Of a stretch of 64,000 bases of DNA, positions 8,176 to 17,661 are shown in pieces. Position numbers and translations under genes: made by a program. The stretch lies in NCBI RefSeq assembly GCF_988242995.1, contig NZ_OZ547043.1. One strand, 5' to 3'. Position 1 is the first letter of the stretch. Each line of letters opens with the position of its first letter. The notes under the pieces were generated by a model. It was not told the DNA's origin. It saw only the letters and a list, made by a program, of their open reading frames with translations, and did not search any database.

Positions 8176-10002
8176 TCAGGCTCCTCGTGAAACAATAATC
8201 ACCACCAGTACCGCCAGTTCAACCAGCGCCATCCGGCGGAACAGCAACGCACTCCCCTCGCACTGCCAGCCCGGTACCAGCGACACCGGATTCAGCCATT
8301 TGCGCAGTTTCAGCACCGGCGCAAACGCCTGTTTCACCGGCATGGCAAAACCGTGAGCAGTAATCACCATTGATTTTTCATGGTCGTAGCCGCACACCCA
8401 GGCCGCGCCGCGGGAACGCGACGGCAAACGATCGCCTTTGCAAATCGCCATAATGATGAATGGCAGCAGCGGGCAGGCAATCAGCAGCAACGTGATCATG
8501 GGTTGAGAAACGGTGGTGTTAGCAGGCTCCAGCGGCAGAGGTACAGCAGCAGAGAGCATCGGCAGCAGCCACGGCGCAGCAACACCGCCAATTACGCAGC
8601 AAATCGCCAGTGCCACCACGCTTACGCTCATCAGGAGCGGCGCACTGGTGGCGTTTTCGGCTTCTTTGGTACGCGGCGCGCCGAGGAACGTGACGCCATA
8701 GACTTTCGCCATACACATCACCGCCAGCGCACCGGTAATTGCCAGACCCACTGCGAGCAGCGGCCCCAGCAGACGGGCAACAAACGCGCCACTATTGCTC
8801 AGTTTGAAGAAGGATTGATAGATAACCCATTCCCCGGCAAACCCGTTCAGCGGCGGCAACGCAGCCATTGCCATCAGCCCAACTAACATGGCGATGGAGA
8901 TAACCGGCATTTTCTTGCCAATACCACCGAGTTTTTCGATATCGCGATGACCGGTACGGAACCAGACGCTCCCCGCCCCGAGGAACAGTACGCTTTTGAA
9001 CAGGCTATGGTTAAGCAGATGGTACAGACCACCGACCAGGCCAAGAGCAATCAGCGCCGGTTGTTCGAGCGCGATACCCGTTACGCCAGCGCCCAGCCCC
9101 AGCAGGATAATGCCGATATTCTCCAGGGTGTGGTAAGCCAGCAGGCGCTGGATGTTGTGTTCCATCAACGCATACAGACCACCGACGAACGCGGTGATCA
9201 TGCCGAGCACCAGCAGCGCGATCCCCCACCACAGCGGTGCATTACCGCCCAGCAGCGACAGGGTTAAAATGCCCAGCAGGCCAATTTTCATGACTACCGT
9301 AGAAAACAACGCGGCAGCTGGCGCAGAGGCGTTAGCATGTGCCTGCGGCACCCAGCCGTGCAGCGGAATAATCCCGGCCAGCAGGCCAAAGCCAATCACA
9401 CCGAGCAGCCAGATATCGGAACCGAGCGGCAGCTGTTGCATACGCATATCCAGCAGGCGCAGATCCAGCGTGCCGTAACGCTGCCACAGCAGCCAGCAGG
9501 CAATCGCCAGCAGCAGAGTGCCAAGACGCCCCAGCGCAAACCACAGTTTGCCCTCTTTGCTGTTGCTGGTGAGGAACACCGCACACAGGGCCATGATTTC
9601 GGCCATTACCACGAACATGCCGAGGTTGCTGGCGATGACGGCACAGACGGCGGCAGCCATCAACATATTGATCTGCAAGCCGTTGCATTTCACCTGCGCG
9701 TGGCGATGCCAGTCAATGTTGTAGAGGCTGACAAACAGACCGCACAGGCCGAGCGTAATCAGCCAAATCGCGTTAAGCGGAGAGATTTGCACATCGTAGC
9801 TTACCAGCGACAGCGCACCGCTCACGCCAACCGCACCAGTCAGCACAGTGAAGCCCGCGGCTGCCGTATACAGGCTACCCACCGCGCCGCCAATTCCGGC
9901 TATCCAGCCACTCAGCGCCTTTTGAAAAGAAAAGAGAAATGCCAGAACAGCGGCGGCGGCAAACCACGCCACGCCACTATTGATCAGGGAAATTGCGCTC
10001 AT
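8176..10002 (-). CDS. hycC: Formate hydrogenlyase membrane subunit (NuoL/antiporter-like)
   Basis: 608-aa polytopic membrane ORF; synteny. Confidence 0.92.
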   Translation of the reverse strand: MSAISLINSGVAWFAAAAVLAFLFSFQKALSGWIAGIGGAVGSLYTAAAGFTVLTGAVGVSGALSLVSYDVQISPLNAIWLITLGLCGLFVSLYNIDWHRHAQVKCNGLQINMLMAAAVCAVIASNLGMFVVMAEIMALCAVFLTSNSKEGKLWFALGRLGTLLLAIACWLLWQRYGTLDLRLLDMRMQQLPLGSDIWLLGVIGFGLLAGIIPLHGWVPQAHANASAPAAALFSTVVMKIGLLGILTLSLLGGNAPLWWGIALLVLGMITAFVGGLYALMEHNIQRLLAYHTLENIGIILLGLGAGVTGIALEQPALIALGLVGGLYHLLNHSLFKSVLFLGAGSVWFRTGHRDIEKLGGIGKKMPVISIAMLVGLMAMAALPPLNGFAGEWVIYQSFFKLSNSGAFVARLLGPLLAVGLAITGALAVMCMAKVYGVTFLGAPRTKEAENATSAPLLMSVSVVALAICCVIGGVAAPWLLPMLSAAVPLPLEPANTTVSQPMITLLLIACPLLPFIIMAICKGDRLPSRSRGAAWVCGYDHEKSMVITAHGFAMPVKQAFAPVLKLRKWLNPVSLVPGWQCEGSALLFRRMALVELAVLVVIIVSRGA

Positions 10003-10610: not shown

Positions 10611-10734
10611 CAGGCATTCCTCAGGTGATTGTCATTTTTGACGAAAACATGCCGATGAAATGTCATTTTCGACACTCATCGACACGCCCATCCCCAAACA
10701 GGCGTAACGCCTGCAAAACGGGCAAAGCCTCAGC

Positions 10735-11196
10735 TCATGCTGCCGGGCTTTGTCCCTTTACCAGTTGGCTTAAATTCACCGGCACATTGTTTTCAATGGC
10801 GGTGTATAAGCTGTCGTAAACGCCAGCGATTTTTTCGAGATAGTGTTCCAGAACCTGTTCGCGATCGCGGATGTTGACCTTGCCATCAATCATGCCGTCA
10901 ATGCTCAGTTGCGCCTGCGCAATCCGCTGTTTGTCTTCACCATCTTTTGTTTCGACGTAATACTCGATGGTGTGGCTGTTAAAGCCATCCGCCAGGGTGA
11001 CGTAAATGCGAAAATGTTCAAAAAGGACGAAACAGAGTTCTTTGTCCGGCGCGCAGCTCATGGCGTGATGCAGGCGCGCTTTCGATAACGTGATCCCCTG
11101 AACCAGCGAATTGCAGTAGATGTGCCACTGGTCCTGTAGGCGACGATGCCGCTGTGCGATGTAATCGGCTTTCTCGCTTATTTCCCAAATAGTCAT
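10735..11196 (-). CDS. hycA: Formate hydrogenlyase regulatory protein (FhlA antagonist)
   Basis: 153-aa ORF MTIWEISEKADYIAQRH... matches HycA. Confidence 0.93.
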   Translation of the reverse strand: MTIWEISEKADYIAQRHRRLQDQWHIYCNSLVQGITLSKARLHHAMSCAPDKELCFVLFEHFRIYVTLADGFNSHTIEYYVETKDGEDKQRIAQAQLSIDGMIDGKVNIRDREQVLEHYLEKIAGVYDSLYTAIENNVPVNLSQLVKGQSPAA

Positions 11197-11233
11197 TGTC
11201 AGGTTACCCGTTTAACAGAGATGCCAGCTTTAA

Positions 11234-11249
11234 GCATTTTCTGTGCCAA
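11234..11249 (-). promoter_or_regulatory. Candidate sigma-54 (-24/-12) promoter of the hyc operon
   Basis: Minus-strand TGGCAC-N5-ATGCT about 40 nt upstream of hycA ATG; hyc is known to be FhlA/sigma-54 dependent. Confidence 0.5.
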
Positions 11250-11361
11250 CTTTTAATTAATTGTTATTAAACAGATTTTTAAGATAAAGATGAATTTCGT
11301 CGCCGTGTCGACGTGTCATTTCGACATCATCGACATTATTCATCGCAGGGATAATCAACAC

Positions 11362-11377
11362 TGGCACAATTATTGCT
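11362..11377 (+). promoter_or_regulatory. Candidate sigma-54 (-24/-12) promoter of the hyp operon
   Basis: TGGCAC-N5-TTGCT about 30 nt upstream of hypA ATG. Confidence 0.55.
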
Positions 11378-11407
11378 TGTAGCTGGCAATAGTTAATGGG
11401 AGGCGAT

Positions 11408-11758
11408 ATGCACGAAATAACCCTCTGCCAACGGGCACTGGAATTGATCGAACAGCAGGCCGCAAAACACGGCGCAAAACGCGTAACTGGGGTCTGGCTC
11501 AAAATTGGCGCATTTTCTTGTGTCGAAACCAGCTCTCTTGCCTTTTGTTTTGATCTGGTTTGCCGCGGCAGCGTGGCGGAAGGTTGTAAACTGCACCTCG
11601 AAGAACAAGAGGCCGAATGCTGGTGTGAAACATGCCAACAGTATGTGACGCTACTGACCCAGCGCGTCCGCCGCTGTCCACAGTGTCATGGTGACATGCT
11701 ACAGATTGTGGCAGACGACGGTTTACAGATTCGGCGGATAGAAATAGACCAGGAGTGA
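11408..11758 (+). CDS. hypA: Hydrogenase nickel incorporation protein
   Basis: ORF 11396..11758; start taken at MHEITLCQRALE (116 aa); CxxC...CxxC zinc motif. Confidence 0.93.
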   Translation: MHEITLCQRALELIEQQAAKHGAKRVTGVWLKIGAFSCVETSSLAFCFDLVCRGSVAEGCKLHLEEQEAECWCETCQQYVTLLTQRVRRCPQCHGDMLQIVADDGLQIRRIEIDQE

Positions 11759-15098: not shown

Positions 15099-17177
15099 AT
15101 GTCATATACACCGATGAGTGATCTCGGACAACAAGGGTTGTTCGACATCACTCGGACACTATTGCAGCAGCCCGATCTGGCCTCGCTGTGTGAGGCTCTT
15201 TCGCAACTGGTAAAGCGTTCTGCGCTCGCCGACAACGCGGCTATTGTGTTGTGGCAAGCGCAGACTCAACGTGCGTCTTATTACGCATCGCGTGAAAAAG
15301 ACACCCCCATTAAATATGAAGACGAAACTGTTCTGGCACACGGTCCGGTACGCAGCATTTTGTCGCGCCCTGATACGCTGCATTGCAGTTACGAAGAATT
15401 TTGTGAAACCTGGCCGCAGCTGGCCGCAGGTGGGCTATACCCCAAATTTGGTCACTATTGCCTGATGCCACTGGCGGCGGAAGGGCATATTTTTGGTGGC
15501 TGTGAATTTATTCGTTATGACGATCGCCCCTGGAGCGAAAAAGAGTTCAATCGTCTGCAAACATTTACGCAGATCGTTTCTGTCGTCACCGAACAAATCC
15601 AGAGCCGCGTCGTCAATAATGTCGACTATGAGTTGTTATGCCGGGAGCGCGATAACTTCCGCATCCTGGTTGCCATTACCAACGCGGTGCTTTCCCGCCT
15701 GGATATGGACGAACTGGTCAGCGAAGTCGCCAAAGAAATCCATTACTACTTCGACATTGACGATATCAGCATCGTCTTACGCAGCCACCGTAAAAACAAA
15801 CTCAACATCTACTCCACTCACTATCTTGATAAACAGCATCCCGCCCACGAACAGAGCGAAGTCGATGAAGCCGGAACCCTCACCGAACGCGTGTTCAAAA
15901 GCAAAGAGATGCTGCTGATTAATCTCCACGAGCGGGACGATTTAGCCCCCTATGAACGCATGTTGTTCGACACCTGGGGCAACCAGATTCAAACCTTGTG
16001 CCTGTTACCGCTGATGTCTGGCGACACCATGCTGGGCGTGCTGAAACTGGCGCAATGCGAAGAGAAAGTGTTTACCACTACCAATCTGAATTTACTGCGC
16101 CAGATTGCCGAACGTGTGGCAATCGCTGTCGATAACGCCCTCGCCTATCAGGAAATCCATCGTCTGAAAGAACGGCTGGTTGATGAAAACCTCGCCCTGA
16201 CCGAGCAGCTCAACAATGTTGATAGTGAATTTGGCGAGATTATTGGCCGCAGCGAAGCCATGTACAGCGTGCTTAAACAAGTTGAAATGGTGGCGCAAAG
16301 TGACAGTACCGTGCTGATCCTCGGTGAAACTGGCACGGGTAAAGAGCTGATTGCCCGTGCTATCCATAATCTCAGTGGGCGTAATAATCGCCGCATGGTC
16401 AAAATGAACTGCGCGGCGATGCCTGCCGGATTGCTGGAGAGCGATCTGTTTGGTCATGAGCGTGGGGCTTTTACCGGTGCCAGCGCCCAGCGTATCGGTC
16501 GTTTTGAACTGGCGGATAAAAGCTCCCTGTTCCTCGACGAAGTGGGCGATATGCCACTGGAGTTACAGCCGAAGTTGCTGCGTGTATTACAGGAACAGGA
16601 GTTTGAACGTCTCGGCAGCAACAAAATCATTCAGACGGACGTGCGTCTAATCGCCGCAACTAACCGCGATCTGAAAAAAATGGTCGCCGACCGTGAGTTC
16701 CGTAGCGATCTCTATTACCGCCTGAACGTATTCCCGATTCACCTGCCGCCACTACGCGAGCGTCCGGAAGATATTCCGCTGCTGGCGAAAGCCTTTACCT
16801 TCAAAATTGCCCGTCGTCTGGGGCGCAATATCGACAGCATTCCTGCCGAGACGCTGCGCACCTTGAGCAACATGGAGTGGCCGGGTAACGTACGCGAACT
16901 GGAAAACGTCATTGAGCGCGCGGTATTGCTAACACGCGGCAACGTGCTGCAGCTGTCATTGCCTGATATTGCTTTACCGGAGCCTGAAACGCCGCCTGCC
17001 GCAACGGTTGTCGCCCAGGAGGGCGAAGATGAATATCAGTTGATTGTTCGCGTGCTGAAAGAAACCAACGGCGTGGTTGCCGGGCCTAAAGGCGCTGCGC
17101 AACGTCTGGGGCTGAAACGCACGACTCTGCTGTCACGGATGAAGCGACTGGGAATTGATAAATCGGCATTGATTTAA
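15099..17177 (+). CDS. fhlA: Formate hydrogenlyase transcriptional activator (sigma-54-dependent enhancer-binding protein)
   Basis: ORF 15063..17177; start taken at MSYTPMSDLG (692 aa); AAA+ motifs GETGTGKE and GAFTGA. Confidence 0.93.
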   Translation: MSYTPMSDLGQQGLFDITRTLLQQPDLASLCEALSQLVKRSALADNAAIVLWQAQTQRASYYASREKDTPIKYEDETVLAHGPVRSILSRPDTLHCSYEEFCETWPQLAAGGLYPKFGHYCLMPLAAEGHIFGGCEFIRYDDRPWSEKEFNRLQTFTQIVSVVTEQIQSRVVNNVDYELLCRERDNFRILVAITNAVLSRLDMDELVSEVAKEIHYYFDIDDISIVLRSHRKNKLNIYSTHYLDKQHPAHEQSEVDEAGTLTERVFKSKEMLLINLHERDDLAPYERMLFDTWGNQIQTLCLLPLMSGDTMLGVLKLAQCEEKVFTTTNLNLLRQIAERVAIAVDNALAYQEIHRLKERLVDENLALTEQLNNVDSEFGEIIGRSEAMYSVLKQVEMVAQSDSTVLILGETGTGKELIARAIHNLSGRNNRRMVKMNCAAMPAGLLESDLFGHERGAFTGASAQRIGRFELADKSSLFLDEVGDMPLELQPKLLRVLQEQEFERLGSNKIIQTDVRLIAATNRDLKKMVADREFRSDLYYRLNVFPIHLPPLRERPEDIPLLAKAFTFKIARRLGRNIDSIPAETLRTLSNMEWPGNVRELENVIERAVLLTRGNVLQLSLPDIALPEPETPPAATVVAQEGEDEYQLIVRVLKETNGVVAGPKGAAQRLGLKRTTLLSRMKRLGIDKSALI

Positions 17178-17221
17178 CAGATGTGGTTATACTCGATCAA
17201 CATTCAATGAAAGGAGGCAGT

Positions 17222-17650
17222 ATGGCAGTTTCAGCAAGAAATCAATTAACCGGAACAGTTAGCGCAGTAGCAATGGGCGCTGTGAATGATGAAGTAGAAC
17301 TGACGCTGGCAGGTGGTGCAAAGCTGGTGGCAATTGTGACTCACAGCAGCCAGCAAGCGCTGGGTCTGGCGAAAGGGAAAGAAGCGATTGCCCTGATTAA
17401 AGCCCCGTGGGTAACGCTGGCAACGGAAGACTGTGGACTGAAATTCTCTGCTCGCAACCAGTTTGCTGGCAGCGTGTCGACAATCACCGAAGGAGCAGTG
17501 AACGCCACTGTCCATATCAAAACGGATGCGGGTTTTGAAATTGTGGCAGTGGTAACAAATGAAAGTCAGGATGAAATGAAACTCACCACTGGCTCGCGCG
17601 TTATTGCATTGATCAAAGCATCAGCCATCCTGATTGCCACCAAAGCGTAA
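17222..17650 (+). CDS. Molybdate/molybdenum-pterin-binding protein, tandem TOBE (Mop) domains
   Basis: ORF 17183..17650; start at ATG 17222 behind AAGGAGG; two repeated ~70-aa TOBE-like halves (ARNQLTGTV... / ARNQFAGSV...). Confidence 0.7.
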   Translation: MAVSARNQLTGTVSAVAMGAVNDEVELTLAGGAKLVAIVTHSSQQALGLAKGKEAIALIKAPWVTLATEDCGLKFSARNQFAGSVSTITEGAVNATVHIKTDAGFEIVAVVTNESQDEMKLTTGSRVIALIKASAILIATKA

Positions 17651-17661
17651 GCGCCTTATTT

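Follow-up and report, generated by a model that had tools for sequence, protein, structure and literature searches.

Divergent sigma-54 promoters and predicted FhlA sites in the hycA-hypA intergenic region of an Escherichia coli chromosome

The 211-bp intergenic region between hycA and hypA contains two back-to-back sigma-54 promoters, one directed at each gene. We analyzed this region within a stretch of 64,000 nucleotides, referred to here as the window. The locus is almost certainly the classical E. coli formate regulon control region, with divergent sigma-54 promoters and FhlA as the activator. Such divergent hyc/hyp promoters have been known since the early 1990s, and the region is the textbook switch that controls hydrogen production by fermenting E. 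coli; the identification itself is of little consequence except for correct annotation. Comparison of 80 species yielded a clean phylogenetic footprint, covering both promoters, the IHF-like site and two clusters of predicted FhlA sites, which could aid the engineering of hyc/hyp expression or the modelling of enhancer geometry.

The window derives from an E. coli chromosome. The 1.3-kb stretch around the promoter pair is 100% identical to that of strain Z1323HEC0462 and is found in 5425 of 5426 complete E. coli genomes, where the genes are annotated as hycB, hycA, hypA and hypB. At the head of the hyc operon, hycA (10735–11196, minus strand) matches the Pfam family HycA_repressor with an E-value of 1e-90, in agreement with the RefSeq annotation; its product is an antagonist of FhlA. 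On the other side, hypA (11408–11758, plus strand) opens the hypABCDE-fhlA operon and was assigned from Pfam HypA and the RefSeq annotation. Its ATG at 11408 aligns with the annotated K-12 start and is supported by a conserved Shine-Dalgarno sequence (GGGAGG, 11398–11403, plus strand); GGAGGC upstream of hypA is invariant, or nearly so, in an alignment of the intergenic region from 22 genera. The reading frames of hycA–hycI and hypA–hypE are all open and intact in the window, and their lengths equal what we take to be the sizes of the K-12 genes. The last gene of the hyp operon, fhlA (15099–17177, plus strand), encodes a protein of 692 residues with GAF, Sigma54_activat, AAA_lid_14 and HTH_8 domains, which is identical to K-12 FhlA at 689 of the 692 positions (99.6%; substitutions D109A, V625A and L640Q). 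According to the first-pass annotation, the gene for the cognate activator, FhlA, lies downstream, and an intact fhlA gene bears this out.

The hyp promoter, TGGCACAATTATTGCT, reads TGGCAC-AATTA-TTGCT at 11362–11377 on the plus strand. The hyc promoter reads TGGCAC-AGAAA-ATGCT at 11233–11248 on the minus strand (AGCATTTTCTGTGCCA on the plus strand, TGGCACAGAAAATGCT on the minus strand). Both were identified by direct reading of the sequence, a pattern scan and PWMs. The element facing hypA lies exactly where it had first been placed; the motif facing hycA had also been read correctly, with coordinates (11234–11249) that were one base off. Compared with the frame TGGCAC-N5-TTGCW (GG at -24, GC at -12), the hyp site has no mismatches, and the hyc site, in which an A replaces the first T of TTGC, still matches. 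The pattern TGGCAC-N5-WTGCT occurs twice in the 64-kb window, at these two sites only, where shuffled sequences lead one to expect 0.10 occurrences. A 17-nt sigma-54 PWM derived from 132 ChIP-seq sites, with hycA, hypA and hycC left out (Bonocora et al. 2015, PMC4591121), ranks the two promoters first and second among ∼128,000 positions, with scores of 20.3 and 17.7 bits and 13.7 bits for the next site. The same ranking was obtained with the independent Barrios matrix of 186 promoters (printed in PMC7658346). Agreement between the two matrices supports the earlier reading of both motifs as -24/-12 elements.

From the promoter geometry, transcription is predicted to start at ∼11388 for hyp, 20 nt before the hypA ATG, and at ∼11222 for hyc, 26 nt before the hycA ATG. 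Both distances equal those listed for K-12, where the two promoters are flagged in EcoCyc; the comparison with K-12 transcription starts proposed in the first-pass annotation was made indirectly, through this flag. The two promoters (11222–11248 and 11362–11388) also form a 27-nt inverted repeat with 78% complementarity, which runs past the -12 elements to a common AGCTGGCA at the predicted starts. We attach no function to this extended similarity, as the extension is not conserved outside Escherichia.

The K-12 hycA and hypA promoters (hycAp and hypAp in EcoCyc, the divergent NtrA-dependent pair of the hydrogenase-3 cluster) are the closest comparison, sharing the locus, gene order, start-codon distances, enhancer core and hycA-hycB spacer with the window. 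The hypAp element is identical to its counterpart here, and hycAp (TTGGCACAAAAAATGCT) has identical cores and differs in a single spacer base (position 11241, G in the window and A in K-12 on the promoter strand, giving AGAAA versus AAAAA). Altogether, the intergenic region differs from that of MG1655 by five single-base changes, none of which falls in a -24 or -12 core; besides the change in the hyc spacer, another affects the variable central part of the IHF-like core described below. A 53-mer carrying the hyc promoter allele of the window has an identical copy in 1815 of 5398 complete E. coli records, and the allele is also present in E. albertii and E. whittamii. This allele is a common polymorphism, and the polymorphisms of the strain look neutral. 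The view that the wiring of the formate regulon is intact in this strain holds for hyc, hyp, fhlA and the cis elements; rpoN, fdhF, hydN-hypF and the ihf genes are located outside the window.

A scan of species-representative genomes for HycA yielded 80 loci from at least 15 genera of Enterobacteriaceae, including Escherichia, Salmonella, Citrobacter, Enterobacter, Klebsiella, Raoultella, Kluyvera, Kosakonia, Lelliottia, Pseudocitrobacter, Pseudescherichia and Superficieibacter, among others. All 80 loci have hycB-hycA divergent from hypA, and all 80 retain both promoters. The site directed at hyp scores 17.2–20.0 bits and lies 28–34 nt before the hypA ATG (42 nt at one locus), and the site directed at hyc scores 14.1–18.2 bits, 34–37 nt before the hycA ATG. 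The promoters persist while HycA identity drops to 63% across these loci, which indicates that the promoter cores are under selection. In the alignment from 22 genera, the intergenic region resolves into a series of footprints: the hycA leader, the hyc -12 and -24 cores, an IHF-like block, an enhancer core, and the hyp -24 and -12 cores followed by the Shine-Dalgarno sequence.

The enhancer between the promoters is a quasi-palindrome at 11289–11344, predicted from an FhlA matrix, inverted arms and conservation. Its core, GACGTGTCATTTCGACATCATCGACAT (11310–11336), is kept across the 22 genera with the consensus GAC(R)TGTCATTTCG(W)CA...TCG(W)CAT, and is flanked by inverted arms at 11289–11302 and 11331–11344 (inverted repeat I8). 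The center of the enhancer lies upstream of both predicted starts, at a distance of ∼95 nt for hyc and ∼71 nt for hyp. A second predicted cluster occupies 10630–10692 in the spacer between hycA and hycB, where the FhlA matrix, a direct repeat and conservation coincide. It consists of TGTCATTTTTGACG (10630–10643), TGTCATTTTCGACA (10661–10674) and tandem TCGACAC repeats extending to 10692; the direct repeat (D2) has two copies 31 bp apart. Within this 124-bp spacer, GTCATTTTTGACG is invariant in the 22 genera and TCGACAC...TCGACAC is nearly so. These spacer sites are the best-conserved non-coding sequences of the region and include its longest invariant non-coding block, so that the cluster is at least as well conserved as the central enhancer.

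The three best matches to the FhlA matrix in the window fall in these two clusters, at 10661–10674 (17.5 bits), 11322–11335 (16.2 bits) and 10630–10643 (12.2 bits). As the matrix, printed in PMC7658346, was built from 13 characterized sites of this kind, the scan is circular and serves to locate the sites. A 16-nt FhlA consensus, CATTTCGTACGAAATG, attributed to Leonhartsberger et al. 2000 (PMC4987338), does not discriminate them; with up to 5 mismatches, it has 14 matches in the window, compared with ∼23 expected. The phylogenetic footprints support both clusters independently of the matrix, and we conclude from the sequence comparison that the FhlA sites probably form two clusters, one between the promoters and one in the spacer. 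The first-pass annotation, which expected the activating sites between the promoters, had thus anticipated the first cluster (11289–11344) and missed the second (10630–10692).

A candidate IHF site (11254–11285, minus strand) lies in the stretch that separates the hyc -24 element from the enhancer. Its core, TAACAATTAATTA (11254–11266), has one mismatch to WATCAANNNNTTR and is accompanied by an A/T-rich tract on its 5′ side. The core match alone is not significant, as the IHF consensus has 54 matches in the window compared with 45 expected. The case for this site is instead based on conservation and on published IHF dependence, the activation of both hyc and hyp by IHF having been stated previously (PMC2636881). 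A TTAA-N4-TTGAT block adjoining the hyc -24 element is conserved in the 22 genera, and the minus-strand core is a perfect AATCAA-N4-TTA (WATCAANNNNTTR) in most genera, with one mismatch in E. coli.

These elements are consistent with the following scheme. RNA polymerase containing sigma-54 would wait as a closed complex on both back-to-back -24/-12 promoters, one serving hycABCDEFGHI (hydrogenase 3) and the other hypABCDE-fhlA (hydrogenase maturation and the activator). FhlA activated by formate would bind the clusters of TGTC/GACA-type sites in the central enhancer and the hycA-hycB spacer, reach the polymerase through DNA looping and open the promoters by ATP hydrolysis. Looping on the hyc side may be helped by an IHF-induced bend adjoining the -24 element. 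Since fhlA belongs to the hyp operon and hycA heads the hyc operon, the region would combine positive with negative feedback. We infer the looping geometry, the assignment of enhancer clusters to promoters and activity in this strain; sigma-54 occupancy and the dependence on sigma-54 and FhlA are likely to apply here by analogy with K-12 and Salmonella, from whose literature they are taken.

The spacing of the elements was compared across genera of Enterobacteriaceae with the invariant TGTCAT of the enhancer as the anchor, measuring the distances to the TGG of the hyc and hyp promoters. Only certain distances occur. The hyc -24 element lies 44–45, 55–58 or 66–67 nt from the enhancer core, and the enhancer core lies 46–48 or 57–59 nt from the hyp -24 element. 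The distance from promoter to promoter is 92, 102–103 or 112–116 nt, with most genera at 112–116. Where one side is a step shorter, the other is often a step longer. Escherichia and Enterobacter (66–67 plus 48 nt), compared with Kluyvera and Klebsiella (56–58 plus 57–59 nt), have an equal total reached by opposite one-step shifts. The steps of ∼10–11 bp suggest that helical phase is conserved, a pattern that is suggestive only, as it reflects few independent events (perhaps five) and one pair of loci falls outside the scheme. Dependence on the face of the helix is well known for other sigma-54 promoters; for hyc/hyp, we found no published description of this phasing pattern. A single helically phased nucleoprotein structure might lock together the two promoters, the bend made by IHF and the complex of FhlA, an idea drawn from spacing that we put forward tentatively and regard as rather unlikely. 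If it were true, helical phasing together with the invariant spacer sites would allow the operon-internal cluster to take part in the same structure.

The division of labor between the two clusters could also differ from this scheme. The central enhancer might serve mainly hyc, with hyp, and possibly hyc too, driven chiefly by the sites in the hycA-hycB spacer over a distance of ∼700 bp; a single shared enhancer between the promoters would then be wrong in mechanism. The spacer contains both the best FhlA-matrix match in the window (17.5 bits) and the longest non-coding block that is invariant in the 22 genera. Leonhartsberger et al. are also said to have obtained, in 2000, an FhlA footprint at a site between hycA and hycB; a full-text search found no mention of an FhlA site there, the primary footprinting papers being outside the reach of that search. 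Furthermore, at ∼71 nt from the predicted hyp start, the central enhancer counts as close compared with the usual 70–150 nt (PMC3844500). However, the interval between the central enhancer and the hyp -24 element is tightly constrained across genera (46–48 or 57–59 nt), which favors use of the central enhancer by the hyp promoter as well. Between the spacer and both promoters lies hycA, a gene that differs in length from genus to genus. We therefore consider control of hyp chiefly from the spacer to be a credible alternative, although a somewhat improbable one.

Published data on the orthologous promoters agree with the preferred reading, that of two functional sigma-54 promoters activated by FhlA, and with the earlier statement that this is known biology. 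In sigma-54 ChIP-seq of MG1655, both promoters coincide with peaks, OS27 (hycA) with a fold above threshold of 91 and OS28 (hypA) with 201; OS28 has the highest PSSM score in the ChIP-seq table (14.09), and the promoters of both peaks carry the EcoCyc flag for experimental confirmation (PMC4591121). The same study states that hypA transcription is activated by FhlA and found the K-12 hyc and hyp promoters occupied by sigma-54 even in aerobic minimal medium (PMC4591121). The hyc/hyp spacer was also recovered as a target of the sigma-54 holoenzyme by genomic SELEX (PMC8743547). According to the K-12 literature, anaerobic induction of hyc and hyp by formate needs fhlA and rpoN. The orthologues in Salmonella LT2, TGGCAT-N5-ATGCT and TGGCAT-N5-TTGCT, are bound by sigma-54 in ChIP-chip experiments (PMC3844500), and the promoter-to-promoter distance there is 114 nt, as in the window. 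A promiscuous activator raises hyc 26-fold and hyp 5.6-fold in Salmonella, in a sigma-54-dependent manner (PMC3844500).

Occupancy by sigma-54 need not imply much transcription, and the two operons could in principle be expressed from other promoters, such as an FNR-dependent start inside hypA. Most of the 135 K-12 ChIP-seq sites are not known promoters (PMC4591121), Salmonella has internal transcription starts within hypA and hypD (PMC3293720), and FNR activation of hyp-fhlA has been described (PMC7658346). Nevertheless, both promoters are marked as experimentally confirmed in EcoCyc, Salmonella hyc and hyp respond to sigma-54 and an activator, and the position and sequence of both elements are kept in all 80 species, directly upstream of Shine-Dalgarno sequences and start codons. 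An internal FNR promoter would, moreover, supplement the sigma-54 promoter, not replace it, and a search of hypA for an FNR box (TTGAT-N4-ATCAA, up to 3 mismatches) found none. It is thus highly improbable that the two elements are largely silent.

It is scarcely credible that both motifs match a short consensus by chance. A lone site this strong is not rare, being present in 23 of 100 simulated 64-kb windows (≥17.7 bits). The two sites in the window, however, rank first and second and form a divergent pair, each member being properly positioned ahead of a gene of the same regulon. For a divergent pair ∼114 bp apart, with each member 30–36 nt before a start codon, the simulated-site rate gives an estimated expectation of ∼1e-4 per window. 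Chance is refuted by conservation in 80 species and sigma-54 binding in K-12.

The other FhlA-dependent promoters, those of fdhF, hydN-hypF and hyfA (OS41, OS26 and OS23), are built along similar lines. Each has a -24/-12 element 20–41 nt upstream of the gene and clusters of TGTC/GACA or GTCA/TGAC-type repeats ∼80–140 nt further upstream. These promoters are unidirectional, however, and among this group only hyc/hyp is divergent with a second cluster inside an operon. The zraP/zraSR promoters (OS38 and OS39), controlled by ZraR, likewise form a back-to-back sigma-54 pair under one self-regulating enhancer-binding protein (PMC4987338), but have a different activator, a different signal (zinc, sensed by a two-component system) and a different enhancer sequence.

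Two weaker sigma-54-like sites lie within hyc genes. The third-best PWM site in the window, GTGGCACATCTACTGCA (11112–11128, minus strand), is located within hycA in the orientation of that gene and scores 13.7–15.0 bits. We rejected it as an internal promoter, since it encodes the conserved residues W-H-I-Y-C and its -12 GC is lost through a synonymous TGC to TGT change in 19 of 80 species; the sequence comparison suggests that it is probably a by-product of coding. The other site, GTGGCGCGTTTGTTGCC (8776–8792, minus strand), lies inside hycC and is identical to IS31, a weak intragenic sigma-54 ChIP-seq site of K-12.

Downstream of the hyp operon, the ∼470 bp between the fhlA stop codon and ygbA (17178–17660) are absent from K-12. 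This stretch contains an ORF (17222–17650, plus strand) for a protein of 142 residues with two TOBE (molybdate-binding Mop-type) domains, and 1892 of the 5426 complete E. coli genomes have this stretch with its TOBE gene. Expression of formate hydrogenlyase responds to molybdate, which makes the position of the gene, immediately after fhlA, worthy of note. The number of these genomes is close to that of the records with the hyc promoter allele of the window (1892 and 1815, respectively), which suggests that the allele and the TOBE gene mark the same lineages.
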